From: Clostridia bacterium DTU025
GTDB lineage: Bacteria > Bacillota > DTU025
Length of the DNA stretch: 64,000 bases
Direction: 5' to 3'
NCBI GenBank assembly: GCA_001513145.1
Contig: LFSP01000021.1
Coordinates: 15,934 to 79,933 of the forward strand
Positions 15,555 to 62,845 of this stretch are shown in pieces. The translations under genes and the position numbers were made by a program. The notes beneath the pieces are model-generated. The model searched no databases. It was not told the DNA's origin and saw only the letters and a program-made list of their open reading frames with translations. The number at the start of each line of letters is the position of its first letter. The stretch's first letter is position 1.

Positions 15555-16448
15555 ATGAGGAAGGGATGGAAGCCGGCGGCGAGGGTGCTGGCGCTTCTGT
15601 GTGCAGTGGCGTTGCTGGCAAGCTCAGGCCACGCCGAAGGCGGCGCTGTGCAGTTCGTATCGAGCCCATCATCAGGCCAGCCCAATGACGTGGAAATAAC
15701 CGTGGCGCCGTCCTTGATCCAGGCGGAGCTCGGCTCCTTCCTGTGGATAGCCCAGACGGAAGTCGGCACCATCACGGTGAGGAACACGGGGAGGCTTCCC
15801 GTGACGGTGGTGGGAGAGTTCCGCGACGCCGTCCAGGACCTGTGGGGCACCGTGGCGGCTGGGCACACCGACATGTGTTCATCTCTGCTCAGGGTGGAGC
15901 CAGCTTCGCTCATGGTCGCGCCGGGAGCAAGCGGATCGATGCGCATCAGGGCGCACCCTTCGGTGGCGCTGGAGAAGAAGTCGGGCGTCGCTGCGGTGCT
16001 TTCCGTAACCGCCAGGCCCGCATCGCGCGGGCTCAGTGCAGGCGTCGGCCTCGGTCCGGGCCTGGGCACAGCCGTGGGGACGCGGGTCTGCGTGCCTGTA
16101 CTGGTGAAGCCTGCGGGGATGCGGAGGACGGGCAGCGGGCAGACATGGCTCGCGGCCAAGGCCATCGGCTACGGGCCTGAAGGCGTGTGGCTGGACGTGA
16201 GGAACGTGGGGCCAGTGTACGCGTGGGTGTCAGGAAAGGTCGAAGTGCGGTGGGCAGAGGAGCGGGCGTCTATCCCCGTACCGCTCAGCCTGGTATTGCC
16301 TGGCTGCACGCGGAGGTTAGTACTTGAGGGATGGGCCGACCTGAGCCTTCCCGAGGGAGAGCACGAGGTCGTGGTCCGTCTGCAGGGAGAACAGCCCACG
16401 ACCTTCGCGCTGAACTTCGCTACAGAGGCATCTCCTGGCCGGCCTTGA
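15555..16448 (+). CDS. Secreted protein, probable Ig-like/beta-sandwich partner of the upstream protein (chaperone-like or adhesin tip?)
   Basis: Signal peptide (VLALLCAVALLASSGHAEG). RBS GGAGGGAA. No sortase or lipobox motif. Function not assignable from sequence. Confidence 0.5.
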   Translation: MRKGWKPAARVLALLCAVALLASSGHAEGGAVQFVSSPSSGQPNDVEITVAPSLIQAELGSFLWIAQTEVGTITVRNTGRLPVTVVGEFRDAVQDLWGTVAAGHTDMCSSLLRVEPASLMVAPGASGSMRIRAHPSVALEKKSGVAAVLSVTARPASRGLSAGVGLGPGLGTAVGTRVCVPVLVKPAGMRRTGSGQTWLAAKAIGYGPEGVWLDVRNVGPVYAWVSGKVEVRWAEERASIPVPLSLVLPGCTRRLVLEGWADLSLPEGEHEVVVRLQGEQPTTFALNFATEASPGRP

Positions 16449-25998: not shown

Positions 25999-26940
25999 GT
26001 GGAAGCTGCAAAGATCAGGGAAGGCGACAGCGTAGTCCGCAAGTCGTACGGCAGCGACCTGATCTTTCAGGTCATGTGCGTAGACTGCGATGGCCCAGGC
26101 GAGCCCAGGGCCCGGTTGAAGGGGCTGAACGTGAGGCTCGTTGCCGACGCTCCCGTATCAGACCTGGAACTCGCAGACGAGAGGGCCGTGATAGAGCTAA
26201 GGCGCGAGACGATGAGGCAGTCGGCAGAGCTGGTGAGGGCCGCTCGCATGCGGATGCAGCAGGAGGAACAGGCCAGGAGCAAGAAGGAACGGCGGCGGTC
26301 GGTATTCGGGCTGGCCAGGGCCTTAGGCGCGGCTGCGACAGCCGACGACCGTTTTAGCCTGCCGGGCAAGGTGCTCCACATTGATGGCGACGCGGATTAC
26401 CTGCGCGACTGCATGCGTTACTATAAAGACCTTGGGGTGCCTGCCGTAGGGAAGCACATCAAGCCGGAACACCAGGCCGACGCGGTGGAGAACCTCCTCG
26501 CCGAGGTATCGCCGGACGTGTTGGTGCTCACAGGGCACGACGCCCTCAAGCGCAAGGGTTCCGATAGGGCCATGATGTCGAGCTACTGGAACTCCGAGCA
26601 CTATGTCAATGCGGTGCGCCGAGCCCGGCGTTACGAGAACGACCTGGACGGACTCGTGATCGTGGCAGGGGCATGCCAGTCATTCTACGAGGCGCTGATA
26701 GAAGCCGGCGCCAACTTCGCCAGCGCCCCGGAGAGAGTACTCATACATTGCATGGACCCCGTTCTCATAGCAGAAAGGATAGTTAACACCCCTGTAGACG
26801 AGATGGTCCTGGCAGACCAGGCGGTGGACGGGACCATCACCAAGCGCCCGGGCATGGGGGGAGTGCAGACCAGGGGGAAGATGCGGGTCAGCATTCCCCG
26901 CACAGCCCTGGGAGTGAACGGAGCCGGGCGGGCAAGGTAG
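25999..26940 (+). CDS. yabG: Sporulation-specific protease YabG
   Basis: VLHIDGDADYLRDCMRYY...PDVLVLTGHDA...VIVAGACQSF signature of YabG peptidase (U57). GTG start with a GGGGGGAAGG RBS. Confidence 0.85.
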   Translation: MEAAKIREGDSVVRKSYGSDLIFQVMCVDCDGPGEPRARLKGLNVRLVADAPVSDLELADERAVIELRRETMRQSAELVRAARMRMQQEEQARSKKERRRSVFGLARALGAAATADDRFSLPGKVLHIDGDADYLRDCMRYYKDLGVPAVGKHIKPEHQADAVENLLAEVSPDVLVLTGHDALKRKGSDRAMMSSYWNSEHYVNAVRRARRYENDLDGLVIVAGACQSFYEALIEAGANFASAPERVLIHCMDPVLIAERIVNTPVDEMVLADQAVDGTITKRPGMGGVQTRGKMRVSIPRTALGVNGAGRAR

Positions 26941-27100: not shown

Positions 27101-28000
27101 CTATCGCTCTCGGATGGTTACATCGCCAAAGTCCACCCTGATGTGCAGGTCGCCCCGTGGCGAGCCGCTGCCGAGGGTGCCGGCGGCGAAGGTGCCCGCT
27201 CCCTGCTGCTCAAGGCGGGTGAGGGGCAGCTCAGAACTGATCCTGCCGGCTGACACCTGGGCGTCGATGTTCACGCACGTGGTCTCAGGCACGTCCAGGC
27301 TCACTCTTCCGGCGTTCACCCGGATGGTGTTGCTGGAGCCCAGCGTTCCGGCGAAGCTGACGTCTCCCATGGATGTGGCCAGGGAGAGCCTGCGGGGGAC
27401 TATGGCCGATGCCACCGAGATGGTGCCCATTGACGTGAAGGCGTCGATGTCCCCTTGGGTGTGGGCCATCCGGATGCTGCCGAAGCCGCTGGAGGCTTTG
27501 ATGTCGCCTTCGATGCCTGACACAGATATCAGGCCGGCGTCGGTGTGGAGCGTTACCGAGATGCCGTCGGGCACCGCCAGCTGCATGTCGACGCTTCCGC
27601 GACGGCGGCTCTGGGTGCTCTCAGAGTCGTCCGGGTGTTGCGCGTCTACGAGCGCGGTGGTCCCCTGCCGGCCTATGAGAAGCTCGAGATCGCGCACGAA
27701 CTCCACCGAGCCGTTGGCAGTGCCGCGCAGCAGGATGGACGAGCCGGGTTCGCGCACCACCGTGATGTCGCCTAGAGCGACGGACACGTCCAGCGAGTCG
27801 ATGCCGTCGAGGTCGATGGTTTCGTGAAAGGACCTGGACGCCTCAACGATGTCGCTGTGAAGATCGGGAATGTCGAAGAGCGCCTGAAGCCTCTGGTCAA
27901 GGAGGCGGGACCCCACCCGCCAGGTTCGCGCGGTGGTGCCGAAGGCGACCAGGGCGATCAGCGCTATTATGACGATGGCTCTGTACGAAAGCCTGTTCAC
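27101..28000 (-). CDS. DUF4097 (putative adhesin / LiaG-like) beta-rich secreted protein
   Basis: N-terminal TM/signal segment. Repetitive beta-strand segments (ISVSGIEGDIKA, GDVSFAGTLGS, GDLHIRVDFGDVTI) typical of DUF4097. Last gene of the GntR-ABC operon. Confidence 0.6.
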   Translation of the reverse strand: MNRLSYRAIVIIALIALVAFGTTARTWRVGSRLLDQRLQALFDIPDLHSDIVEASRSFHETIDLDGIDSLDVSVALGDITVVREPGSSILLRGTANGSVEFVRDLELLIGRQGTTALVDAQHPDDSESTQSRRRGSVDMQLAVPDGISVTLHTDAGLISVSGIEGDIKASSGFGSIRMAHTQGDIDAFTSMGTISVASAIVPRRLSLATSMGDVSFAGTLGSSNTIRVNAGRVSLDVPETTCVNIDAQVSAGRISSELPLTRLEQQGAGTFAAGTLGSGSPRGDLHIRVDFGDVTIRER

Positions 28001-28011
28001 GGTTCCACCTC

Positions 28012-28797
28012 CTATGCGTCCACTTCTCTATCGAGAAGCTTTCCAGTGACCAGTATCAGCGCCGCGGCGGCCGCCACCATCGGCCACAGGGGTATCATCG
28101 GCGCCACCACCCTCTCGATCCCTATGGCGTTGCGGGCGTACAGGACGACCGGAGGGTTCGGCATGAACGAGGCAACGTACATTGCCAGGGGGCTGTAGAG
28201 CGCGGCCAGGTATGCCAGGAGGCCATACACGGCGAAGGCGATGAGGCCGGCGATGCGCGGCACCAGGGTGCCCACTGCGAAGGAGAACGCGCCGGCTGCG
28301 ATGGTCATCGCCAGCCACGACAGCGCCGTGAGCAGTGCCGTAGCGGCGCTGACGGCGATCTCCCACGGTTTCATGTGGTAGAGAGGACTGTCCGGCGGAT
28401 GGAGCAGCGTCATCGTTCCGGGGCTGCGGGACGCCACCGCGAGGCTGCCCACGCCTGCCACCGCTGCCAGCAGGATGATGGCGGCGGTCGCTGCGGCAAC
28501 TTTAGCCGATACGACGCCTGCGCCGCTCACGGGGTAGCTTAGCAGTCGCAGTGACGTGTGGTGCTGCCATTCGCTGCGCATCATCATGTAGCCGGCAAGC
28601 AGGGCCACGGTGGCCAGCACCGGAAAGGGAATGCACGACACGGAGATGGCCAGGGCTTCGTTCATGAGGCTATCGGCCCATACAGGCGCTCTGTAGGCGA
28701 TGTAGGCGTCGGCTCCGGCGATGGCCACTGCCGCAACCAGCGTGAACCACTTGATGGCCATCCATTCCTTTCGAACCAGGTTCCACCATCTGCGCAC
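28012..28797 (-). CDS. ABC-2 type transporter permease
   Basis: Six predicted TM segments. Directly downstream of the ATPase on the minus strand. Confidence 0.6.
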   Translation of the reverse strand: MRRWWNLVRKEWMAIKWFTLVAAVAIAGADAYIAYRAPVWADSLMNEALAISVSCIPFPVLATVALLAGYMMMRSEWQHHTSLRLLSYPVSGAGVVSAKVAAATAAIILLAAVAGVGSLAVASRSPGTMTLLHPPDSPLYHMKPWEIAVSAATALLTALSWLAMTIAAGAFSFAVGTLVPRIAGLIAFAVYGLLAYLAALYSPLAMYVASFMPNPPVVLYARNAIGIERVVAPMIPLWPMVAAAAALILVTGKLLDREVDA

Positions 28798-28798
28798 T

Positions 28799-29491
28799 CT
28801 AGCACACCTCCGCGAATATCTCGTTCAGCGACTGGCCGCGCTCCTCGCGGAGCTGGTCCGCGTGGCCGGAGAGGACCACTCTGCCGCTGGAGAGGAACAC
28901 CACGTCCTCGAACAGTGCCTCTGATTCCAACACCTCGTGGGTGGAGATGATTATCGCCTGCTCTCCGGCGCGGTAACGCGATGCGATGGTCTGCAGGATC
29001 GCAGCGCGTGAAGGGGGATCGATGCCGGCCAGGGGCTCATCCATGAGGACCAGGTCGGCTGCCCGCGACATGGCCAGAGCCAGCTTGAGTTTGGCGCGCT
29101 GGCCCCGGGAGAGGGCCCCCACCTTCTTGCCCGGGTCGAGCTTGAGTTCGGCCAGCAGGGAGCGGGCGTCGTCCACGTCCATGTCGCCGAACATCGAGCT
29201 TTCGAACTCCATAGCCTGCCTCACCGTCATCCAGGCGTAGAAGTTGTCGACTTCGGGGACGTATGCGATGTGCCGCTTGTCGCAGGGCCTGAGCTGGCGG
29301 CCCATGAGCCTGACTGAACCTGAGGTGGGGCTGGCAAGGCCCGCGGCGATGCGGAGCAATGTCGACTTGCCGGCGCCATTTGGCCCCAGCAGGCCAACGA
29401 TCTTGCCTCGCGCCACGGCGAGGTCGATTCCGCGGAGGGCGTGGGCCATGTAATACCTCTTGTGTACTGAGTGGAATTCGAGGACGTTCAT
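28799..29491 (-). CDS. ABC transporter ATP-binding protein
   Basis: GLLGPNGAGKSTLL Walker A, LSRGQRAKLKLA signature, LVLMDEP Walker B. Start trimmed to MNVLEFHSV, overlapping the GntR stop (ATGA). Confidence 0.85.
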   Translation of the reverse strand: MNVLEFHSVHKRYYMAHALRGIDLAVARGKIVGLLGPNGAGKSTLLRIAAGLASPTSGSVRLMGRQLRPCDKRHIAYVPEVDNFYAWMTVRQAMEFESSMFGDMDVDDARSLLAELKLDPGKKVGALSRGQRAKLKLALAMSRAADLVLMDEPLAGIDPPSRAAILQTIASRYRAGEQAIIISTHEVLESEALFEDVVFLSSGRVVLSGHADQLREERGQSLNEIFAEVC

Positions 29492-29967
29492 ATGCTCGAG
29501 CCTCCATCTGTCGTGTCGGTCGCATCTCTGTGAGGGGCGCCGGGTGCGCGCTGGGCGCCTTGTGCGTGTGCGGCGCACGGGGCGTCAGCGGGTCGAACGG
29601 TGCTCGCCGCCGACAGCTCCTGGGCCACCAGCGCGATTATGTCATCGTATTCGTAGCGAAGGCGCCGCATCTCGTCTACGAATGACCGAACAGCACCTTC
29701 AGTCACCTGTTGCCTGACCTCCTTCACGATGTCGGGGTCGGCCACGATGAAAGTGCCCTGGCCCCTTTGGGTTTCTACCACGCCCATCCGTTCCAGTTCC
29801 ATGTAGGCGCGCTGAACAGTGTTGGGATTGACCTTTGCGGAGCTGGCCAAGTCCCTGACGGATGGCAACTTCTCGCCGGTGGTCAGCTCGCCGACGGCCA
29901 GATCCCACATGACTCCCTTCATGATCTGGACGTATATCGGAGTCGCCTCATCGAACTTGATGATCAT
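29488..29967 (-). CDS. GntR-family (YtrA subfamily) transcriptional regulator
   Basis: wHTH region PIYVQIMKGVMWDLAVGELTTGEKLPSVRDLASSAKVNPNTVQRAYMELERMGVVETQRGQGTF. Short C-domain typical of YtrA. Confidence 0.8.
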   Translation of the reverse strand: MIIKFDEATPIYVQIMKGVMWDLAVGELTTGEKLPSVRDLASSAKVNPNTVQRAYMELERMGVVETQRGQGTFIVADPDIVKEVRQQVTEGAVRSFVDEMRRLRYEYDDIIALVAQELSAASTVRPADAPCAAHAQGAQRAPGAPHRDATDTTDGGSSI

Positions 29968-30030
29968 GACCAACCCCCTTGGCGTTTTCTCCATCGTTTT
30001 CGGGTGAGGGCTGCGGTTTGGGAAGTAGGG

Positions 30031-30052
30031 GTGTACTAGTGCACTCATACAC
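30031..30052. promoter_or_regulatory. 22-bp palindromic operator GTGTACTAGTGCACTCATACAC between the -10 and the start of the GntR gene
   Basis: Inverted repeat with 9/11 matching arms. Typical architecture for YtrA-type autoregulation. Confidence 0.45.
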
Positions 30053-30289: not shown

Positions 30290-30360
30290 TTGACACCGCC
30301 GAAAACGCTCTGGTATAATTCTCAGTTTATTTGACGGCTATCGCGATTTGTGGTAAGATA
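30290..30360 (+). promoter_or_regulatory. Tandem veg promoters: P1 TTGACA-18-TGgTATAAT and P2 TTGACG-17-TGgTAAGAT
   Basis: Two consecutive consensus -35 hexamers, each with an extended TGn -10. The ORF-track start at 30331 is the P2 -35 hexamer, not a real start codon. Confidence 0.5.
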
Positions 30361-30393
30361 AGTGAGACGAGGTTGGGAAGGAAGGTGAAGTCG

Positions 30394-30669
30394 TTGGCGG
30401 TTTCCAATGCGCTGGTACGGATTAAGCAGGACCTTGACGCCTATGTGGGAAGAACCGTAAGGCTCAAGGCGAATCAGGGCCGCAAACGTATTATGGAAGC
30501 CGAGGGAGTGCTCGAGAGGACGTATCCCAAGGTTTTCGTGGTCCGGATCGACGAGAATCCCAGAAGTGTAAAGCGCATTTCTTACAGCTACGCCGATGTC
30601 CTCACCTCTACGGTGGAAGTCAGCATCGATGAGTGCGGTAACGAAACGCGTATCGGGTGCACCGGATAG
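30394..30669 (+). CDS. veg: Veg (biofilm / sporulation-associated small protein)
   Basis: TVRLKANQGRKR...ERTYPKVFVVRIDEN...RISYSYADVLTSTVE is highly similar to B. subtilis Veg. Start trimmed to a TTG with GGAAGG 8 nt upstream. Confidence 0.8.
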   Translation: MAVSNALVRIKQDLDAYVGRTVRLKANQGRKRIMEAEGVLERTYPKVFVVRIDENPRSVKRISYSYADVLTSTVEVSIDECGNETRIGCTG

Positions 30670-30907
30670 TGTCAGGTGTTATAGCGCTTAGAGCCCCCGA
30701 CCGCTGGCAGCGGGTCGGGGGTTCTGCATTTGTCCCCTCACTCTTGTAACGCCCGGAGAATATAGATAGTCTGCGGCGCACGGCGCACGGCGCATGGCGC
30801 TCGTCGCACAGCGATGGGTAGCGGTGCGCCGCGGTACACAGTGGCCGCGCAGCGGCTGGCAGCGACTGACCGCGGTGCAGGCCGGCATCAGGCCGAGCAT
30901 TGGAGAG

Positions 30908-31951
30908 ATGGTTCACATGGAAACGAGCAGGCCGGTGTATACGTATCGCGGCTCCATACACGTACACAGCACCTATTCCGACGGCTTGGCCACCGTTGAG
31001 CAGATAGCCGGCCAGGCCGCGGAGGCCGGTGTGGACTTCGTGATCATCACCGACCACAACACGCTGAAAGGGCGCGAAGACGGCCTTGAGGGCTGGTACG
31101 GCGACGTGCTGATCCTGATCTCCGAGGAGATCACCCCGGATACCGATTCCAACCACTACCTTGCCCTGGGCGTGGGGCAGGCGATACCTCCTTTGCTGGA
31201 TCCTGCGGAGAACATCAGGGCGGTGCGGGCTGCGGGCGGGATCGGCATAGTGGCCCATCCAACCGGCGGCTACATGGTGCACGGCGAGTACAAGGAGTAC
31301 CCCTGGACCAACTGGCGGGCCGGGGAGTTCGACGGGATAGAGGTGTGGAATCACGCCTACGACATAACGGGAAAGTCGAAGAACCTGATACAGCTGGGGC
31401 TGTGGTGGCTTTTCCCGTGGCTGGCGCCAGCCGGGCCTGTGGACGAGGTGCTCAAGGTGTGGGACCACTTCGTGGCGTCGGAGGGGCGGCCCACTGTGGG
31501 GATCGCCGGCTCTGACTGCCACGGCATGCTCAGCTCGTACAGGAAGGGCCTTCGAAGCGTATGCACGTACATCGTGACGGAGGGGCCGCTTACAGGGTCG
31601 TTGAGCCACGATGCAGCGCTGGTGTATGCAGCGATCAGGCAGGGCAGATGCTACGTTGGCGCCGACAAGGTGCGGGACGCCGCCGGGTTCGAGTGCTACG
31701 TGAGTGTCGGGGATGAGAGGGTGCACATGGGAGGCGTCGCACGGCTCAGCCGGGCGCCGGTGCTGGTGGTGAAGAGCCCCGCTGAAGGCTTGATAAGGGT
31801 GATCCGCGACGGCCAGCTGGCGCTGGAGTGGAGAGGCATGGAGCTTGAGGCCAACATCAACGTCAGGGGCGCCTATCGGGTGGAAGTGGCGTTGGCCAGC
31901 GGGAAGAGAGATAAGCCGTGGATATACGGAAACCACATAAGGGTCGTATGA
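30908..31951 (+). CDS. PHP-domain metal-dependent phosphoesterase (CehA/McbA-like)
   Basis: HVHSTYSDG...FVIITDHNT...HP...SDCHG motifs of the PHP superfamily. Confidence 0.75.
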   Translation: MVHMETSRPVYTYRGSIHVHSTYSDGLATVEQIAGQAAEAGVDFVIITDHNTLKGREDGLEGWYGDVLILISEEITPDTDSNHYLALGVGQAIPPLLDPAENIRAVRAAGGIGIVAHPTGGYMVHGEYKEYPWTNWRAGEFDGIEVWNHAYDITGKSKNLIQLGLWWLFPWLAPAGPVDEVLKVWDHFVASEGRPTVGIAGSDCHGMLSSYRKGLRSVCTYIVTEGPLTGSLSHDAALVYAAIRQGRCYVGADKVRDAAGFECYVSVGDERVHMGGVARLSRAPVLVVKSPAEGLIRVIRDGQLALEWRGMELEANINVRGAYRVEVALASGKRDKPWIYGNHIRVV

Positions 31952-33132
31952 CGACAGAACGCCTTCAGATGGCCCTAACCGACCTGGGCTTCGATCCAGG
32001 CCCCGTGGACGGCGCCATGGGCCCCCTGACCCAGCTGGCGCTGGCGAGGTTCCAGCGGGCCTACCGCCTACGTGCCGACGGCTGCATGAGCCCTGAGACG
32101 TTGCGCCTGCTCCGGACGGAGCTTCCCAGATGCAGGCGGCTGGTTTGCGTTGGGCAGCACAGCAGTCTCGTGGGGCTGGCGGCGGAGGTGGGGGTCATGT
32201 CGCATGCCCTGGTGGAGGCGAACAGGCACAAGGCACGCGATCCCGTCTACCCAGATGAAAAGCTCACCGTGTACAGGCGGGCCGTGATACAGGCGCTGGT
32301 GGGCCCTGGGGACCTGCAGCTGTCGGAGGGCCGGGGCAGGTTCACCAGGGTGCTGGTGCCCTTGGGAAGGCTAGCAGGCGACGGCGGGGCTGAGCTGGAG
32401 CCGCTGGTGGGTGGGGAGGCGCTCTCAGCGGACTGGCCGGCGGGCGGGCCGGCGATGGGCGTGGTGGAGTTGGGCGGCCCCGCGCGGACGCAGAGGCTCG
32501 CGGTGGCCAGGGCGGTCATTGCGGCAGCAGCCCGCTGGGGGAGGGCTCCCCTTGCTGGCGTCGTGCTGCGCGACGTTGGGCTGGATCTTGAGGGAGCGGT
32601 GTTCATGGCGCAGCTTGCGTCGGTATTGGCGCGGATCAGGCGCCGATCCCACCTCAAGCTAGAGCTGGGGGCATGGATACAGCTTCCCGATGCCGGCAGG
32701 CACGTCGACCTCGAGGAGCTGGCGCAACACGTCGACTGGGTGATGGCTGAGCTGAGGGAGACCGCCGGCAGCTGGGAGCTTCTGAGCGATGCCGCGCGCA
32801 AGGCACCCAGGTGGAAGCTGGTGGCCGGGATCGACCTCCGTCCTTATCACATTGAAGACGGAAAGCCCGTGCGCATGGAATGGCGCGACTTCTCTGCGCT
32901 TCGAAAACGCCACGTCATGCGTGAATCGGTGGATCTTGAGACTGGGTTGAGGCAATTCGCCTACAGGTCGAAGGGGCGCGTGCGCCGGATGTTCACGGAA
33001 GATCGCGGCAGCCTCGCCAGGGTGCTGCACGAGGTTAACGCGTTGAACATGCTGGGGGTGGCTTTCATCGGCATGCCCCCTGACAGCGCGTGGGTCACCG
33101 AGGAGATGCTCAAGAAGTTCATTCCCATGTGA
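31948..33132 (+). CDS. Peptidoglycan-binding (PG_binding_1) domain protein with GH18-like TIM-barrel region carrying a degenerate catalytic motif (DVGLDLEG)
   Basis: N-terminal LTDLGFDPGPVDGAMGPLTQLALARFQ PG-binding repeat. Central D-x-G-L-D-L-E resembles the GH18 DGxDxDxE motif with one Asp missing. Start overlaps the PHP gene stop (ATGA). Confidence 0.45.
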   Translation: MTTERLQMALTDLGFDPGPVDGAMGPLTQLALARFQRAYRLRADGCMSPETLRLLRTELPRCRRLVCVGQHSSLVGLAAEVGVMSHALVEANRHKARDPVYPDEKLTVYRRAVIQALVGPGDLQLSEGRGRFTRVLVPLGRLAGDGGAELEPLVGGEALSADWPAGGPAMGVVELGGPARTQRLAVARAVIAAAARWGRAPLAGVVLRDVGLDLEGAVFMAQLASVLARIRRRSHLKLELGAWIQLPDAGRHVDLEELAQHVDWVMAELRETAGSWELLSDAARKAPRWKLVAGIDLRPYHIEDGKPVRMEWRDFSALRKRHVMRESVDLETGLRQFAYRSKGRVRRMFTEDRGSLARVLHEVNALNMLGVAFIGMPPDSAWVTEEMLKKFIPM

Positions 33133-33235
33133 CAGGCTGCATATGTAAATGGTGTGACGATTTTGTTACGCCATGCGGTAATTGTGTCACTATGCGGGGG
33201 CGGCTTGACCCGCCGACGCGGGGAGGGAGGACCAA

Positions 33236-34834
33236 TTGGGCATCGAGATTCAACGGAGGGCCCTTTCATTCACTGAAGTGTCAGGTCAGGGCATGGCTGA
33301 GGTCAACGTGCAGCGGTCGGCCGCCTTGCCTGGACAGTATCCTGCCTTGAATCAGGCGGAGGTGCAGCCGATCCTCTGGGCACATGGCACTGCCGTGGTC
33401 ACGTCGGCTGAGGCTGGCGACGGGACCGTGAAGGTGGCAGGGCACATTGTGTCGTCCATTGTGTACCTGCCTGAAGGACAGGGCGAAGCGCAGGTGGTGG
33501 AGCTTGCGGAACCGGTGTTTGAGGCCACAGTGGAGGTGCCGAACGCCAGGCCGGGCGACTGGGCGGAAGCCGTTGCCACACTGATCTACCTCAACGCCGA
33601 GCCCACGGGCTCCAAGGGGTTGATGCTTTCAGGGGCCCTGGCTGTGTCGGCCAGGACGTTGCGGGACCACTTCGTCGAGGTGGCGGAGTCGGCGGTTGCC
33701 GTGGGGCCGTCGAAGATCACCGTGAAGACCGAGGATGTGACGGTAGAGCGTCACGTGCCGTTGGAGCCCCAGGACGCGGTGTTGGAGGAGAGCCTGGGCC
33801 ACTGGCAAGTGGGCGACGAGGCCCAGCACAGGCCGTGCGCGGCATCGGCCAGCGTGAGAGTGGTTGGATGTGACGCGTCTGACGGTAAAGTGGTGGTGAG
33901 CTGCGAGGTGGCCGTGGAGGTTGCCTGCGTGCAGGGGTCAGGCAGGATCGTCGACATCCTGCGCAGGGAGCGGCTGCCGCTTTCCATCACGGTGGTGGCG
34001 CCTGAAGCCGGACGCGGGATGAGTGCCCGGGCCGATGCATGGGTTGAGCGGGCCAGCGCATCGGTGGACTCCGACGGCAACGTCCATGTGAAGGTGCACG
34101 TGGTGACGAGGCCCACACTGGTGGCGCACGAGAGGGTCAACGTGGTCACGGCCATACAGAGCGAGACCGCGGAGATCGTGGACGTCGACACCGTCTGGAT
34201 CGTGGGCGAACGGGTGGTGGCGGAAGGCTCAATGCAGATAGACATTGCCGACAGCGTCCCCGTGCACGCCATCGCCGGGGCCGGTGCCATCACGGGCATG
34301 GAGGAGATACGGTCCAGCCACGGCTATGTGGGCGTCACCGACGTGGAGGCTGGCGAAGGGGAGGCATCGCTCAGGGGAATCCTCGCCGTGAGGGTCATCG
34401 CCGAGGATATATTCGAAGACCAGGACGCGGAGTACACGTACGCCAAGGCCATGGACATTCCGGTGGAGTTCTCCGACACCGTCGAGATCCCCGACATAAC
34501 AAGCGCAGACAGGCTCGAGGTGCGCAGCGTCAGCCACGCTTTGGCGGCAGGCCGCGTTGGCGCCTCCAAGATGGAAGTGGAGGGCACGGTCAGGTTCGAT
34601 CTGGTGGCATACAGGCCAATCAGGGTTGCTGTGGTGAAGTCGGCATACACCATCACTCCGGTGCAGCTGGATCCGTACGCCTTGACCTTCTGCGTGGTTG
34701 GGCCTACCGACACTCTGGCCAGGATAGCCAGGAAGTACGGGGTTACAGCGGACGCGCTGGCTGCGGCGAACTCGCTTTCGCCCACCGATGCGTTGATTCC
34801 GGGAGAGAAGATCTACATACCGGCGGCGCGGTGA
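33236..34834 (+). CDS. LysM-domain protein with repeated beta-rich N-terminal domains (SpoVID/SipL-like spore-envelope candidate)
   Basis: C-terminal LysM (YALTFCVVGPTDTLARIARKYGVTADALAAANSL...IPGEKIYIP). TTG start with a strong GGGAGGGAGG RBS. Confidence 0.7.
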   Translation: MGIEIQRRALSFTEVSGQGMAEVNVQRSAALPGQYPALNQAEVQPILWAHGTAVVTSAEAGDGTVKVAGHIVSSIVYLPEGQGEAQVVELAEPVFEATVEVPNARPGDWAEAVATLIYLNAEPTGSKGLMLSGALAVSARTLRDHFVEVAESAVAVGPSKITVKTEDVTVERHVPLEPQDAVLEESLGHWQVGDEAQHRPCAASASVRVVGCDASDGKVVVSCEVAVEVACVQGSGRIVDILRRERLPLSITVVAPEAGRGMSARADAWVERASASVDSDGNVHVKVHVVTRPTLVAHERVNVVTAIQSETAEIVDVDTVWIVGERVVAEGSMQIDIADSVPVHAIAGAGAITGMEEIRSSHGYVGVTDVEAGEGEASLRGILAVRVIAEDIFEDQDAEYTYAKAMDIPVEFSDTVEIPDITSADRLEVRSVSHALAAGRVGASKMEVEGTVRFDLVAYRPIRVAVVKSAYTITPVQLDPYALTFCVVGPTDTLARIARKYGVTADALAAANSLSPTDALIPGEKIYIPAAR

Positions 34835-34838
34835 GCTC

Positions 34839-34940
34839 CGAGCGTTCCGTGGCGCTTCGCGATCTCGGGGATGGCACAACGCATGTAGTTGGAAAAAGGC
34901 AAAGCCGGCGCTGGGCGCCGGCTACCACCTTCAACTTGCG
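34839..34940 (+). repeat. Copy B of the ~100-nt repeated structured element (begins 5 nt after the LysM gene stop)
   Basis: About 83% identity to 2279-2380 with the same hairpins (GAGCGU..GCGCUU; AGCCGGCGC-UGG-GCGCCGGCU). Confidence 0.5.
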
Positions 34941-35096
34941 CAACCGGGCCGAGGCGGAAGCGGAGCTCTTTGCGTGTAGACGACCCGTGGCTGGGTCGTT
35001 GTGTCTGTTCGCCTCCGCCTGTCGAACTGTTTCCGTATTCTCCAACACTGCCTGCCACTTGCAGAGCAGCTACTCGCCGGTAACCACATCGAACGA

Positions 35097-35140
35097 GAGA
35101 GCCCCCGCCAAGCACAGGCAGGGGCTCTCTCGTGTTGATT
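35097..35140 (+). terminator. Hairpin GAGAGCCCC-N15-GGGGCUCUC followed by GUGUUGAUUUG
   Basis: 9-bp perfect stem in the intergenic region upstream of the helicase gene. Confidence 0.3.
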
Positions 35141-35364
35141 TGACGCTTACGCGCGCCGCTGGATAGGATGACGGTTTGACGTTGACAGGAGGAAGGAGGC
35201 GCCAGAGCGTCGTCTTTACATTACCTCCGCAAGCTGGCGGATACGCCTGCGCGCCTCGGAGCGCTTGGCGGCACGTGCTCAGGTAGCCTTCCCTTGCTGC
35301 GAAGCCCGGCCCCTCGTTTGCAGGGAATCCTACGGCTTCAGGAGAACAATACGTATGGCTATGA

Positions 35365-37950
35365 ATGAGAGTACGGAGCGGAGGGCGCGCTTTGAGGGCA
35401 TCGCGCTTCATAGACTCGCTGACATCGTCTTACGACTACAAGGGACAGATCGTCCACATAGAGACCATCCCCGCAAGGAGCGCCAGCTACGGCAGGCTCG
35501 ATCCGCCCCTTAGCGCTGCGCTGCAACGGGTGGTGGAGGGGCTTGGCGTCAGGGAGCTGTACACCCATCAGGTATCGGCTATCGAGCATGCCAGGGCAGG
35601 GCGGCACGTGGTGGTGGTGACCGGAACCGCCAGCGGGAAGACGCTGTGCTACAACATCCCTGTGGTGGAGCGCATAATGTCTGACCCCGCTGCAACGGCG
35701 CTCTACGTGTTCCCCACCAAGGCTCTTACCCAGGACCAGCAGCGGGGTCTTGCCCGCATCGCGGAGCTGGGCGGCCCTGAGCTGCGCTTGAGGTCGGGGG
35801 CGTACGACGGCGACACGCCTGACTCCACCCGCCGCAAGCTCAGGGAAGAGGCCAACGTGATCCTCACCAACCCTGACATGCTGCACCAGGGCATACTGCC
35901 GTCACATCCCGCGTGGCGCAGGTTCTTTGCGGGCCTCCGCTACGTGGTCATCGACGAGATACACGCCTATCGCGGGGTGTTCGGGTCAAACGTGGGCAAC
36001 GTCATCCGGCGCCTGAAGCGGATATGCGCGCATTACGGCTCGTCTCCCACGTTTATCTGCTGCTCGGCGACGATAGCGAATCCCGGGGAACTGGCCTCCG
36101 CCATCGTCGACGAAGAGGTGCGCGTCGTTGATAACGACGGCTCTCCCAGGGGCAGGCGGCTGTTCGTGCTGTGGAACCCGCCGCGCCTTGAGGGCAGCAT
36201 GGAGCGGCGTAGCGCCAACCGAGAGGCCGAGCGGCTCATGACGAAGCTCATCTCCGAAGGCGTGCCCACCATCACCTTCGTGAGGGCGCGGGTGGTGGCG
36301 GAGCTGATCTACAGGTACGTGGTGGAGGCCCTGCGCAGGGAAGCACCGTCGCTTGCGTCCAAGGTCAAGCCGTACAGGGGAGGGTACCTGCCCAGCGAGC
36401 GCCGGGAGATAGAGAGGCAGCTGTTTTCCGGGGAGCTCCTTGGAGTGGTCAGCACCAACGCGCTGGAGCTAGGGATAGACATCGGATCCCTCGATGCCAG
36501 CCTCATAGTGGGCTATCCCGGCACCGTGGCGTCAGTCTGGCAGCAGGCGGGGAGGGCAGGCAGAAGCACCGAGGAGAGCCTGTCTGTTTTCGTCGCGCAC
36601 GATCTGCCCATCGACCAGTACCTCATGAGGCATCCTGAATACTTCTTCGGCCAGTCTCCAGAGAACGCCATAGTGAACCCGGGCAACCCGTATATACTCG
36701 TGGGGCACCTAAGGGCGGCCGCGGCGGAGATACCCATCTCCGCCAGGGAGCTGGAGGGGTTCGGGCAGTACGCGGCGGCGCTGGTGCAGATCCTAGAGGA
36801 GCGAGGGGACCTGCTACGCAGCAGGGTTGGGTGGAGGTTCACGGGCCGGGGATTCCCCGCAGCCGACGTCAAGCTGCGAAACATGGCCGACAACACCTAC
36901 ACCATCATTGACACGTCCTCGCCCGGGGGAAACAGGGTTATCGGGACCATCGACGAAGTGTCAGCTTTCGAGCAGGTGCATCCTGAGGCCGTGTATATGC
37001 ACGACGGTGAGACCTACCTGGTGTCGGACTTGAACCTCAAGGAGCGCACGGCCTACGTGCACAAGGCGGATCTGGACTACTTCACGCAGTCCATCACGGA
37101 GACGCGGGTGAAGGCGGACCAGGCGGAGCAGGCCCGTAAGTGGCGGCAGAGCCGGGTGGAGTTCGGCGACGTGACGGTAACCAGCCTCACGTTCATGTTC
37201 CGGAAGATCAAGTTCTACGAGCGCGACAGCATCGGCTTCGGCAAGGTGGACCTGCCGCAGCACGAGCTTGCCACTACGGCTGCATGGATCGAGCTGCCGC
37301 ATTCAGCTGCGGTGCGAGCTGCGGAATACGGGCGAATAGCTTCGGAAGGGCTCATTGGCATAGGTAACGCCGCGTCGGCGGTGATCCCGCTGTTTGCCAT
37401 GTGCGACCCGTCGGACATCGGCACTGTCGTGGATTCTGCCAACACCGGAGTGCCGACGCTGTTCATCTACGACAGGCATCCCGGGGGCGTGGGATATGCG
37501 CAGAAGAGCTACAACATGATCGAAGAGGTGATGCAGGCCTGCCTCAACCTCATCGAACGGTGCCCGTGCACATCTGGGTGCCCGTCGTGCGTGGGCTCCC
37601 CGATACCTCCTTACGCACAGCAAGATCCCGACACGACGCCGCGCGGCCGCATTCCCGATAAGGAGACAGCGCTGATCATCCTGCACGAGATGTTGGAGCG
37701 GGAGCCGTATGTGCCCCGCACCCCCGCAAGGAGCTGGGGACGGATGCCGGATTACGACGCTGGCTTGGATCCGAACTCCGGATGGGGGGGCCACGCCGAC
37801 GGGAACGGCCCCGGGGAGAACGGGGCCGCCGGATTCGGAGCGGCAGGGTCACGTGCGCCGGAGGCTCCGGACGACCGCGATGTACGCATAAAGGTCGTCC
37901 CGTTGCCGGAGGGAGTGGAGCGCAGGATTAGAAAAATGATACAAAGGTGA
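35365..37950 (+). CDS. mrfA: MrfA/YprA-like DEAD/DEAH-box helicase with C-terminal DUF1998 (Zn-Cys4) domain
   Basis: Helicase motifs TGTASGKTLCY (I), DEIH (II), SAT-like CSAT, HRGG-like GRAGR (VI). C-terminal CPCTSGCPSCVGSP Cys4 cluster characteristic of DUF1998. Extra Gly-rich C-terminal tail. Confidence 0.8.
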   Translation: MRVRSGGRALRASRFIDSLTSSYDYKGQIVHIETIPARSASYGRLDPPLSAALQRVVEGLGVRELYTHQVSAIEHARAGRHVVVVTGTASGKTLCYNIPVVERIMSDPAATALYVFPTKALTQDQQRGLARIAELGGPELRLRSGAYDGDTPDSTRRKLREEANVILTNPDMLHQGILPSHPAWRRFFAGLRYVVIDEIHAYRGVFGSNVGNVIRRLKRICAHYGSSPTFICCSATIANPGELASAIVDEEVRVVDNDGSPRGRRLFVLWNPPRLEGSMERRSANREAERLMTKLISEGVPTITFVRARVVAELIYRYVVEALRREAPSLASKVKPYRGGYLPSERREIERQLFSGELLGVVSTNALELGIDIGSLDASLIVGYPGTVASVWQQAGRAGRSTEESLSVFVAHDLPIDQYLMRHPEYFFGQSPENAIVNPGNPYILVGHLRAAAAEIPISARELEGFGQYAAALVQILEERGDLLRSRVGWRFTGRGFPAADVKLRNMADNTYTIIDTSSPGGNRVIGTIDEVSAFEQVHPEAVYMHDGETYLVSDLNLKERTAYVHKADLDYFTQSITETRVKADQAEQARKWRQSRVEFGDVTVTSLTFMFRKIKFYERDSIGFGKVDLPQHELATTAAWIELPHSAAVRAAEYGRIASEGLIGIGNAASAVIPLFAMCDPSDIGTVVDSANTGVPTLFIYDRHPGGVGYAQKSYNMIEEVMQACLNLIERCPCTSGCPSCVGSPIPPYAQQDPDTTPRGRIPDKETALIILHEMLEREPYVPRTPARSWGRMPDYDAGLDPNSGWGGHADGNGPGENGAAGFGAAGSRAPEAPDDRDVRIKVVPLPEGVERRIRKMIQR

Positions 37951-53316: not shown

Positions 53317-53619
53317 TTGATAGTCACGAACGTGAAGGTTCGCGCAGTGGACGTGTCCGGAAGGATGAAAGCGCTGGCCACCATCACCCTTGACGGCGCC
53401 TTCGTCGTTCACGATCTCAGGGTGATCCAAGGAGATAAAGGGCTGTTCGTCGCCATGCCCAGCAGGCGGGGCGCCGACGGCAAGTTCCGCGACGTGGCCC
53501 ACCCCATCACTCAGGAACTCAGGGACACGATCGAGGCAGCGGTTCTCCAGGCGTACACGGCTGAACACGAGCACGAGCAGCAGCACGAGCAGCAGCACGA
53601 GCATCAGCAGGGCGCTTAA
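53317..53619 (+). CDS. spoVG: Septation/sporulation protein SpoVG
   Basis: [39 protein letters not shown]... is near-identical to SpoVG. C-terminal HEQQ repeat. Confidence 0.92.
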
Positions 53620-53963: not shown

Positions 53964-54341
53964 TTAGCTCGGCTGGACCGTGGGCACCGTGGTTGCCGTG
54001 GTTGCCGTGGTTCCTGTCTTCAGGTCATGGCTGGGATCCAGGTGCCATCCGGGCGGGCGATGCAAGTGCGAGGCTGCCGCAGCGCCGACCACCTCGTGGA
54101 AGCCCCGGCTGACTCCTGCTGACATCGATGCTATGAGGCTTGCCTCCGCCGCTTCGATCATCTTCCGCACCATGTTGCCGCCGAGGGTTCCGCAGTCACG
54201 CGAGCTCACGTTGCCCCAGTAGTCACCCTGAACCAGATGCGTGGGAGTCCCGATCTCCTGGGCAGTCTCCCACTTCATGCGTTCAAGGGCCCGCGCAAGT
54301 TCCGGCGACCGGCTTCGCCGCCTGTTCGTGTTCGACGGCAT
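53964..54341 (-). CDS. Alpha/beta-type small acid-soluble spore protein with an unusual ~50-aa C-terminal extension
   Basis: Start trimmed to MPSNTNRRRSR (RBS GGAGGTGA). Both SASP signatures are present: KWETAQEIG and RDCGTLGGNMVRKMI. The C-terminal tail includes TTATTATT, encoded by 3 x GTGGTTGCC. Confidence 0.7.
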   Translation of the reverse strand: MPSNTNRRRSRSPELARALERMKWETAQEIGTPTHLVQGDYWGNVSSRDCGTLGGNMVRKMIEAAEASLIASMSAGVSRGFHEVVGAAAASHLHRPPGWHLDPSHDLKTGTTATTATTVPTVQPS

Positions 54342-61084: not shown

Positions 61085-61639
61085 ATGAGACCGACGGGGA
61101 TCGTCAGGAGAATCGACGAACTAGGCAGGATAGTGGTGCCCAAGGAGCTCAGGAGAACCCTCCGGATTCGCGAAGGCGATTCGGTAGAGATCTACGTAGA
61201 CGAGAACGGGAACATCGTGCTGAGGAAGTATTCGCCGGTGGGGCAGCTCAAGGCCATGTCCCACGACATGGCGGAGGCGTTGGCCGAGTCGTCCGGGCTG
61301 GTGGCCCTCATTTGCGACAAGGACGTGGTGCTGGCTTCGGCCGGGCCTGGCGCTCCTGACCTCTCAGACAGGGCCATCGGCAGGGCAGTGGAGAAGTCCA
61401 TGAGCGAGCGGCAGGTGCTCCTGGTCCACTTCAGCGGAGGCGGCGAGGCGTCGTCCATCGTGGACCCCGGCGACGACGGGTTCGTCATCGTGTCGGCGGC
61501 CATCGCCCCCATCATCGTGGACGGCGAGGCAGTTGGCGCAGTGGTGGTGGGGACCACGTCCAACGTCACCACCGTGGGCGAGCTCGAGGAAGACCTGGTC
61601 GTCACCGCCGCGGGATACTTCGCCAGGCAGGTGGGATAA
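61085..61639 (+). CDS. spoVT: Stage V sporulation protein T (AbrB-N domain + GAF)
   Basis: MRPTGIVRRIDELGRIVVPKELRRTLRIREGDSVEIYVDENGNIVLRKY is near-identical to the SpoVT N-domain, followed by a GAF-like domain. RBS GGAGGAG. Confidence 0.9.
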   Translation: MRPTGIVRRIDELGRIVVPKELRRTLRIREGDSVEIYVDENGNIVLRKYSPVGQLKAMSHDMAEALAESSGLVALICDKDVVLASAGPGAPDLSDRAIGRAVEKSMSERQVLLVHFSGGGEASSIVDPGDDGFVIVSAAIAPIIVDGEAVGAVVVGTTSNVTTVGELEEDLVVTAAGYFARQVG

Positions 61640-62431: not shown

Positions 62432-62530
62432 TGGGGCTGCAGTAGGGCTTGGCATCGAGCAACGCGGACGGGCATACACATCCTTAGAGGCAGCGCACTG
62501 ACGTGCCATATCTCATAAGGAGTGTTGCCC

Positions 62531-62845
62531 ATGGCCGCGAGAATCGCTCCCGAACCTGGAGACGAGACCAGGCGGAAGAGGCCTGGCATGCAGCACAAGC
62601 TGGTCATCGTAGACAGGGAGAACATGAACGTCGAGGGCATCCTCAACGTGGAAAGCTTCGACGACGAGCAGATCGTGCTGGAGACAAACGCGGGGCTCCT
62701 CACGCTTTTCGGGCAGGGCCTTCACATCCGCCACCTCAACCTTGAGGAGGGCGTCGTCGAGATCGACGGCTACGTGGAGGCCTGCGACTACGAGGACGAG
62801 AGCCGCAAACGCGCGAAGGGCCTGTTCGCCCGCCTGCTCAGGTAA
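62531..62845 (+). CDS. yabP: Sporulation protein YabP
   Basis: HKLVIVDRENMNVEGILNVESFDDEQIVLETNAGLLTLFGQGLHIRHLNLEEGVVEIDG matches the YabP family. ATG at 62531 with GGAG 8 nt upstream. Confidence 0.75.
   Translation: MAARIAPEPGDETRRKRPGMQHKLVIVDRENMNVEGILNVESFDDEQIVLETNAGLLTLFGQGLHIRHLNLEEGVVEIDGYVEACDYEDESRKRAKGLFARLLR

Follow-up and report, generated by a model that had tools for sequence, protein, structure and literature searches.

A probable sipL locus with a predicted dead SleL-like glycosidase as its upstream partner in an uncultured high-GC lineage of Bacillota

Here, we analyse a block of three genes in a 64,000-nucleotide stretch of DNA from Clostridia bacterium DTU025 (GenBank assembly GCA_001513145.1, contig LFSP01000021.1, forward-strand positions 15,934 to 79,933). 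We refer to this whole stretch as the window, and positions are counted from its first letter unless another contig is named. The block is probably the sipL locus of an uncultured, endospore-forming Bacillota lineage of high guanine-plus-cytosine (GC) content, in which a dead SleL-like partner, a protein with the fold of glycoside hydrolase family 18 (GH18), is encoded directly upstream of sipL. The gene order is yabG–veg–[PHP–dead GH18]–sipL, and the three genes of the block, all on the plus strand, are followed by a gene for an MrfA/YprA-type helicase:

30917..31951, plus strand: gene 1, PHP-fold metallohydrolase of the CehA/McbA family, 344 amino acids (Pfam PHP and NCBIfam NF038032)
31948..33132, plus strand: gene 2, PG_binding_1 + LysM + GH18-like pseudo-glycosidase, 394 amino acids (domain searches, profile alignment, fold search)
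33236..34834, plus strand: gene 3, SipL-family coat morphogenetic protein, 532 amino acids, TTG start (Pfam SipL/SPOCS and LysM; syntenic orthologues)

Three co-directional genes between veg and the helicase had been reported in a preliminary description of the window, and domain matches together with orthologues in the same order confirm them. This matters here because the window is 63% GC, and spurious open reading frames (ORFs) therefore abound on both strands. Genes 1–3 have protein-level orthologues, with the order kept, in more than 10 independent contigs, which argues that they are not high-GC ORF artefacts. Several public assemblies hold identical or near-identical copies of the locus.

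Gene 3, whose TTG start at 33236 sits behind a strong GGGAGGGAGG ribosome-binding site, has the domain composition of SipL. A scan of the whole protein yields SipL/SPOCS (PF12673) at 64.6 bits against a cut-off of 23.6, in three stretches, along with LysM (E 6.7e-11). The individual domains are as follows:

33362..33601, plus strand: SPOCS/DUF3794 repeat 1, residues 43-122 (27.5 bits scanned alone)
33836..34066, plus strand: SPOCS/DUF3794 repeat 2, residues ~201-277 (21.5 bits alone, just below the 23.6 cut-off; one of the three whole-protein stretches)
34301..34525, plus strand: SPOCS/DUF3794 repeat 3, residues ~356-430 (26.1 bits scanned alone)
34694..34822, plus strand: C-terminal LysM domain, residues 487-529 (Pfam E 1.9e-12 scanned alone)

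Touchette et al. found SipL of Clostridioides difficile to consist of three DUF3794 domains with a LysM domain at the C-terminus, and showed that coat localisation requires this LysM domain, which binds SpoIVA (PMC6436350). In the C. difficile chromosome, consecutive tags denote a yabG-like protease, CD3569, and sipL, CD3567 (PMC3789822), with Veg as CD3568 (PMC10117727). Because its three SPOCS domains and LysM domain, as well as the yabG–veg–sipL position, match those of C. difficile, we assign gene 3 to the SipL family. The two are likened here by architecture and position, not by direct alignment; they are also similar in length (~520-530 amino acids), in having no signal peptide, and in having a mother-cell-type -10-like box upstream of the gene. 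They differ in that two extra genes, for the PHP and dead-GH18 proteins, lie between veg and sipL in the window, in the residue equivalent to C. difficile Trp475 (see below), and in the host, here an uncultured lineage of Bacillota with 63% GC. Orthologues of gene 3 in the same position range from 75% down to 23% identity. Word-indexed homologue searches with genes 2 and 3, even with a profile, returned the close lineage only, and no named clostridial SipL was retrieved. In a separate lineage, locus L019 carries a 612-amino-acid SipL-like gene (183-2639; three SPOCS domains plus LysM) with spoIIR directly after it.

The preliminary description had likened gene 3 to coat proteins such as SpoVID and SipL and named DUF3794/SPOCS as the family to look for. 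The search did return SPOCS rather than unrelated families, and the SipL half of the comparison stands. The SpoVID half does not: the SpoVID model TIGR02907 reaches 16.8 bits against a cut-off of 169.85, in the LysM region only, and we rejected that identity. SpoVID of B. subtilis, a SpoIVA-bound adaptor for coat encasement, does combine SPOCS with a C-terminal LysM domain, but it has a single N-terminal SPOCS domain and a different middle region. It had also been remarked that none of the three genes has a Bacillus counterpart at this position. This is fair, although a clostridial counterpart exists in CD3569-CD3568-CD3567 (PMC3789822, PMC10117727).

Gene 2 most likely starts at the ATG at 31948. 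A longer form from the GTG at 31918 is less likely: the additional residues show conservation only in the part that shares its DNA, in another frame, with the conserved C-terminus of PHP. The protein is divided as follows:

31960..32112, plus strand: PG_binding_1 domain, residues 5-55 (Pfam E 5.5e-13)
32134..32280, plus strand: LysM-like domain, residues ~63-111 (Pfam in family members; AlphaFold2 model)
32335..33129, plus strand: GH18-like (beta/alpha)8 barrel with an alpha+beta insertion, residues ~130-394
32569..32577, plus strand: codons for R208-D209-V210, the position homologous to the GH18 catalytic D-x-E (profile alignment)

A PG_binding_1 repeat had been noticed before; the domain is present, in a single copy, and is followed by a LysM domain that had been overlooked. 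LysM is matched by Pfam in 8 of 11 family members, the window protein itself not among them, and with E 4.2e-7 in the homologue from locus L030. In the AlphaFold2 model of gene 2, residues 63-116, the LysM region, form a beta-alpha-alpha-beta unit.

The barrel was recognized along three lines. First, an exhaustive profile search (E up to 0.001) shows the gene 2 family to be rare, with 18 hits among 1.84 billion representative proteins; one of these 18, P0027, belongs to GH18 proper (Pfam Glyco_hydro_18, E 4.9e-24), and hhalign pairs the 11-member family profile with it at 97.95% probability (E 3.2e-13, 259 columns). Second, AlphaFold2 with 11 diverse sequences gives a confident model (predicted local distance difference test score, pLDDT, 86.1; predicted template modelling score, pTM, 0.87); a first model made from just 4 close homologues (pLDDT 49.5) was discarded. 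Third, the best matches of the model in the PDB, by Foldseek, are SleL of B. megaterium and B. cereus (4s3k, 4s3j), bacterial chitinases, and YdhD of B. subtilis (3cz8), with 13-14% sequence identity to the SleL and YdhD structures. Thus, the GH18-like barrel proposed in the preliminary description is borne out, and it is closest to spore proteins. Additionally, the L030 homologue appears to bridge the gene 2 family to GH18. This protein combines PG_binding_1, LysM and Glyco_hydro_18 (25.0 bits, below the 29.6 cut-off), matches the gene 2 family profile at 99.8%, and has DFR where GH18 has DFE.

In the profile alignment, GINIDFE of GH18 pairs with GVVLRDV, so that D-x-E falls on R208-D209-V210, where predicted strand 204-209 ends. 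The column of the catalytic Glu contains V, A, G, S, P or R in 19/19 family members, never Glu, and the neighbouring Asp is often lost too. The degenerate active site reported earlier is therefore upheld, but for different residues: the sequence it had been assigned to, DVGLDLE (D209-E215), is five residues out of register. Judged by these residues, gene 2 is predicted to encode a catalytically dead GH18 protein. Because the catalytic Asp-x-Glu is lost while PG_binding_1, LysM and the barrel are kept, the product is most likely a non-hydrolytic glycan-binding or scaffold protein that would work with SipL at the cortex/coat interface.

Two groups of known proteins are instructive in this regard. 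Like SleL/YaaH (4s3j, 4s3k) and YdhD (3cz8), the gene 2 protein has N-terminal peptidoglycan-binding modules, a GH18 barrel with an insertion domain, and no signal peptide. SleL, however, has two LysM domains and an intact D-x-E with N-acetylglucosaminidase activity, whereas gene 2 encodes PG_binding_1 plus one LysM domain and has R-D-V instead. The second group, the chitinase-like lectins and pseudo-chitinases (YKL-40/CHI3L1, Ym1/2, narbonin, XIP-I and the tamarind chitinase-like lectin), likewise has the GH18 fold without the catalytic Glu, and all of them are among the fold matches of gene 2. These lectins are binders, not hydrolases; unlike gene 2, they are eukaryotic and secreted, of unrelated biology, and lack PG_binding_1 and LysM.

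The dead-GH18 gene lies directly upstream of a SipL-like gene at every locus with enough sequence, over a range of 30-63% GC:

L007 and L022: close relatives of the window
L008, L009, L011, L020, L023-L025 and L027: group at 44% SipL identity
L010 and L026: pair present
L016 and L017: pair present
L013-L015: 30%-GC contigs, SipL 26% identical
L012: pair present, the sequence downstream of the dead-GH18 gene beginning MGIQLE
L030 and L032: SipL 23% identical

A metagenome scan seeded on the PG_binding_1 motif gave 80 loci, mostly unrelated, with ~10 informative. The conserved unit is the dead-GH18/sipL pair, not the trio. As far as we are aware from a literature search that was not exhaustive, neither the PG_binding_1-LysM-dead-GH18 family, nor its strict adjacency to sipL, nor the two promoter footprints considered next have been described.

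Each of the two genes at the head of a transcription unit, that for PHP and that for SipL, is preceded by a promoter-like motif, and sipL also by a leader hairpin:

30738..30768, plus strand: sigma-K-like motif TCAC-N16-GAATATAGATA, just past the veg terminator on the way to the PHP gene (motif search; relatives)
33118..33147, plus strand: sigma-E-like motif TTCAT-N17-CATATGTA, with its -35-like part in the last codons of gene 2 and its -10-like GCATATGTA after the gene 2 stop
33198..33214, plus strand: sipL leader hairpin GGGCGG-CTTGA-CCCGCC, between the -10-like box and the GGGAGGGAGG ribosome-binding site (conserved in all high-GC relatives)

The upstream motif, TCAC-N16-GAATATAG, occurs a single time in the 64-kb window and in 0/100 shuffles. 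Each of 17 loci, the AT-rich L012-L015 among them, has TCAC-N16-GAATATA once, at the corresponding position; L030 has AC-N16-GAATATATAG ahead of its first gene, and in L018 the motif is the canonical GCATATAG. The second motif, as TTCAT-N17-CATAT, occurs once per locus in 19 loci, and a GCATAT[G/A]T box directly after the gene 2 stop is kept in every lineage, as GCATATGTA in L030. In AT-rich relatives the Phe codon within TTCAT is the rare TTC (4/48 Phe codons in L013, 3/21 in L012), and its retention points to constraint at the nucleotide level. This suggests that the 3′ end of gene 2 may be constrained both as coding sequence and as promoter. Codons for the conserved residues K-F-I-[I/P] at the C-terminus of the dead-GH18 protein overlap the -35-like TTCAT (window 33115-33132, L013 2447-2461, L012 1460-1477).

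By resemblance to consensus, the sipL-proximal motif looks sigma-E-like and the upstream motif sigma-K-like. The sigma-K consensus that we used has AC at -35 and [A/C]ATATA at -10 (PMC3789822). Saujet et al. found that sigma-E and sigma-K promoters of C. difficile have similar -10 boxes, for example CATATTAT and CATATAAT, and that sipL is sigma-E dependent, with a sigma-E promoter mapped upstream (PMC3789822). A sigma-70 scan accounts for veg and for neither of the block's two transcription units. Readings of the GAATATAG motif as a sigma-G, sigma-F, sigma-H or sigma-A site were rejected by inspection, the flanking sequence at the needed spacing not being conserved. A search for sigma-E or sigma-K promoters had been suggested in the preliminary description, and motifs of this mother-cell type are indeed present and conserved in distant lineages.

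The sipL leader hairpin forms in predicted folds (z -3.06 for the L008 leader) and is absent in the low-GC L013. The window's sipL leader also has, at 33157-33197, a ~40-nucleotide insertion relative to L007 with an extra 11-bp hairpin, and this insertion looks as if part of the sequence following the -10-like box had been duplicated. The PHP leader contains a GC-rich stretch of ~100 nucleotides (30773-30880) with tandem GGCGCAC-type copies and several inverted repeats of 11-12 nucleotides; relatives, in which the leader is ~45 nucleotides long, are without this stretch, and it has no Rfam match.

Several observations weigh against the reading of the block as a sipL locus with a dead SleL-like partner. 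Pfam Glyco_hydro_18 (PF00704) matches neither the window protein nor any of the 11 family members scanned, and in sequence-only searches of gene 2 against the PDB and Pfam the PG_binding_1 part alone was matched; the GH18 assignment came only via the exhaustive profile search, hhalign and the fold search. In C. difficile, veg and sipL are directly adjacent, which implies that the partner is not required by every SipL. Trp475 of C. difficile SipL corresponds to Ala495 in gene 3, by a positional mapping from the residue numbers in PMC6436350. In C. difficile, full binding to SpoIVA requires this aromatic residue of the LysM domain, and the W475A mutant is ~100-fold defective (PMC6436350). The residue after LysM D-T-L is Ala, Pro, Thr or Gly in relatives, and the SipL of L030 has DTLW. 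Given Ala495 at this position, the contact of gene 3 with SpoIVA may differ from that in C. difficile. The window itself contains no SpoIVA gene. As for the promoters, the -10-like box before the PHP gene starts with A where the canonical base is C, and the -35-like TTCAT, which is not conserved in L030, carries T or C at the position of the final A of the sigma-E ATA. The lineage's yabG promoter region has a conserved CATATCCT box with no clear AC at -35, and provides no usable sigma-K reference.

These points leave the sipL locus with its dead SleL-like partner as the probable reading, and we consider the three rivals discussed below less likely. A stronger form of it, which we regard as tentative and rather doubtful, is that gene 2 encodes a dedicated SipL partner tethering the SpoIVA–SipL basement layer to the cortex/outer-forespore peptidoglycan. 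It would then be an unrecognised morphogenetic component, lost in C. difficile, with the sipL promoter located partly in the partner's last codons.

The best of the rivals, though still unlikely, would have genes 1–3 form one envelope module in which the PHP enzyme processes a phosphorylated envelope precursor or polymer for the gene 2 protein. Gene 1 is identified by Pfam PHP (29.6 bits) and by the CehA/McbA metallohydrolase model NF038032 (101.4 bits, cut-off 80), and shares the PHP metal-binding motifs with the phosphoesterases TM0559 (2anu) and 3e0f and with the NF038032 family, whose domain model it passes. The full-length orthologues in the alignment all share its ligands HxH, DH, E, H, H and DxH, a qualification that is needed since the L007 copy is broken by a frame break and masked bases. 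With all metal ligands kept, the enzyme looks active, as the envelope module would have it. The 4-base ATGA by which the gene 2 start at 31948 overlaps the PHP stop codon, GTGA in L016, implies translational coupling of the two genes, and the order PHP–gene 2–SipL is kept through all high-GC relatives. Yet the PHP gene is confined to these high-GC groups. In the 30%-GC L013 there is none, and the dead-GH18 gene directly follows the promoter motif; in L030 a Nal1-like trypsin-fold serine protease (L030 534-1556) occupies the PHP slot, behind the same AC-N16-GAATATA motif, which suggests that the operon's first slot is exchangeable. Moreover, the closest solved structures to the PHP protein are nucleotide or RNA phosphoesterases, not wall enzymes. 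Since it is absent or replaced in other lineages, the PHP protein is best regarded as an exchangeable passenger. Its inclusion in a spore-envelope block, as first described, is not supported, position and co-transcription being all that link it to the pair. We know of no characterised PHP/CehA-McbA member in a sporulation operon. L030 also has a small ORF of ~120 amino acids (1570-1930) between the protease and dead-GH18 genes.

The start of gene 1 is also revised. A GGAGAG site ends at 30907, leaving 0 nucleotides before the start at 30908 that had been proposed and 9 before the ATG at 30917, so that the latter is more likely. One gene caller and the orthologue alignment support 30917 as well, the orthologues starting just upstream of a conserved YRG-IHVHS motif.

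It is also conceivable, though quite improbable, that gene 2 encodes an active cortex-fragment-lytic germination enzyme of the SleL/YaaH type with a relocated acid, for example E215 of DVGLDLE. The best structural matches being the cortex-lytic SleL (4s3k, 4s3j) and YdhD is consistent with this, as is an acidic cluster just past strand beta-4 in many high-GC members (GLDLEG, DLEADA, DIEDQD, GLGDDE). E215 itself, however, is not conserved, its column holding D, Q, N, Y or G in relatives; the MxYD motif of GH18 is degenerate as well, reading AELR in the window protein; and the canonical Glu and often its neighbouring Asp are lost, as described above. We know of no GH18 enzyme with its acid five residues downstream of the canonical position, which also counts against an active gene 2.

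No signal peptide and no hydrophobic or membrane segment was found in any of the three proteins. This fits synthesis in the mother-cell cytoplasm; mother-cell-made LysM coat proteins (SleL/YaaH, SafA, SpoVID, SipL) are likewise without a signal segment. That the block is not specific to sporulation, genes 2 and 3 encoding LysM/PG-binding proteins of the vegetative wall and the motifs being operator or RNA elements, might draw on the frequency of LysM and PG_binding_1 in vegetative wall enzymes and on a promoter call made by consensus resemblance to motifs that both deviate from canon, but it is the least probable of the alternatives: proteins without signal peptide or membrane segment could not reach the vegetative wall via the Sec route, the SPOCS family (PF12673) is defined on spore proteins of the SipL/SpoVID type, the locus is syntenic with C. 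difficile sipL (PMC3789822, PMC10117727), it is surrounded by sporulation genes, and the L019 SipL-like gene has spoIIR after it.

The features flanking the block in the window are these:

25999..26940, plus strand: yabG (Peptidase_U57), sporulation protease and marker of the conserved yabG-veg-sipL neighbourhood (Pfam E 1.5e-98)
30373..30669, plus strand: veg (PF06257; Pfam), with a sigma-A promoter at 30290-30319 and a terminator hairpin at 30690-30725
35365-37950, downstream of sipL: helicase, MrfA/YprA-type DEAH (DEAD + Helicase_C + WHD_HRQ1 + MZB; TIGR03817 775 bits, below the cut-off of 874)
53317-53619: SpoVG
53964-54320, minus strand: alpha/beta-type small acid-soluble spore protein (SASP), in an sspF-like position
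61085-61639: SpoVT
62522-62845: YabP

The presence of the SASP, SpoVG, SpoVT, YabP and YabG genes indicates that the source is an endospore former. The gene order of the window also matches the origin-proximal order of Bacillus, metG ... yabE-like, ksgA, yabG, veg ... ispE, yabJ, spoVG, SASP, glmU, prs, mfd, spoVT, mazG, yabP. In L020/L021, yabG adjoins veg and the order yabG–veg–PHP–gene 2–SipL–helicase is unbroken. In the window, an inserted module on the minus strand (27101-30048; GntR regulator, ABC ATPase, ABC-2 permease and a 299-amino-acid protein) lies between yabG and veg. The veg promoter is a perfect sigma-A site, TTGACA-18-TATAAT with TG, and its terminator hairpin has 13 bp. Gene callers give Veg as 98 amino acids from 30373; a second sigma-A-like site covers 30331-30359, so that the start of a 112-amino-acid veg ORF, at 30331, falls within promoter sequence.

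Among the window's close relatives and in the group with 44% SipL identity, the helicase gene comes immediately after sipL; in L016 the two are ~4.7 kb apart, with other genes in between, a phosphate-regulation module among them. The helicase has no evident tie to sporulation. The gap between sipL and the helicase gene (34835-35364) is 530 nucleotides in the window and ~150 in relatives. It holds a strong minus-strand terminator (34923-34903), a hairpin with a 17-bp stem (35093-35133) and a sigma-A-like site (35140-35169), and may contain a small unannotated gene or RNA. An Rfam scan of the whole window found one tRNA only, with no match in the leaders or in the 530-nucleotide gap.

Homology, synteny and the promoter footprints together suggest how the locus might work. 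The gene 3 product, a SipL-type adaptor in coat morphogenesis, would be synthesised in the mother cell, with transcription driven by the gene's own sigma-E-like promoter. If it behaves like its C. difficile counterpart, it would dock via its LysM end on the SpoIVA basement layer around the forespore, with the SPOCS repeats then recruiting coat proteins that arrive later. At the cortex/coat interface, the dead-GH18 protein may bind either glycan or a further coat protein, and in the window's lineage its gene would be co-transcribed and translationally coupled with that for PHP. Either sipL gained an upstream partner or C. difficile may have lost it.

SipL has been described as conserved in clostridia only (PMC6436350) and as arising at an intermediate clostridial branch (PMC6878958). 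Nearly all work on it has been done in C. difficile; here, the protein is seen at the equivalent chromosomal position in an uncultured high-GC lineage of Bacillota. SipL itself is already known, and in this respect our finding extends the range of the family. The two footprints, conserved over 30-63% GC, provide motifs of sigma-E/sigma-K type that may be used to predict mother-cell regulons in uncultured lineages. Finally, in every relative examined other than C. difficile, sipL is accompanied by a gene for a predicted dead SleL-like protein with two peptidoglycan-binding modules. This protein is a concrete candidate for linking the SipL-based coat to the cortex, and would illustrate the conversion of a spore hydrolase fold to a predicted binding role.

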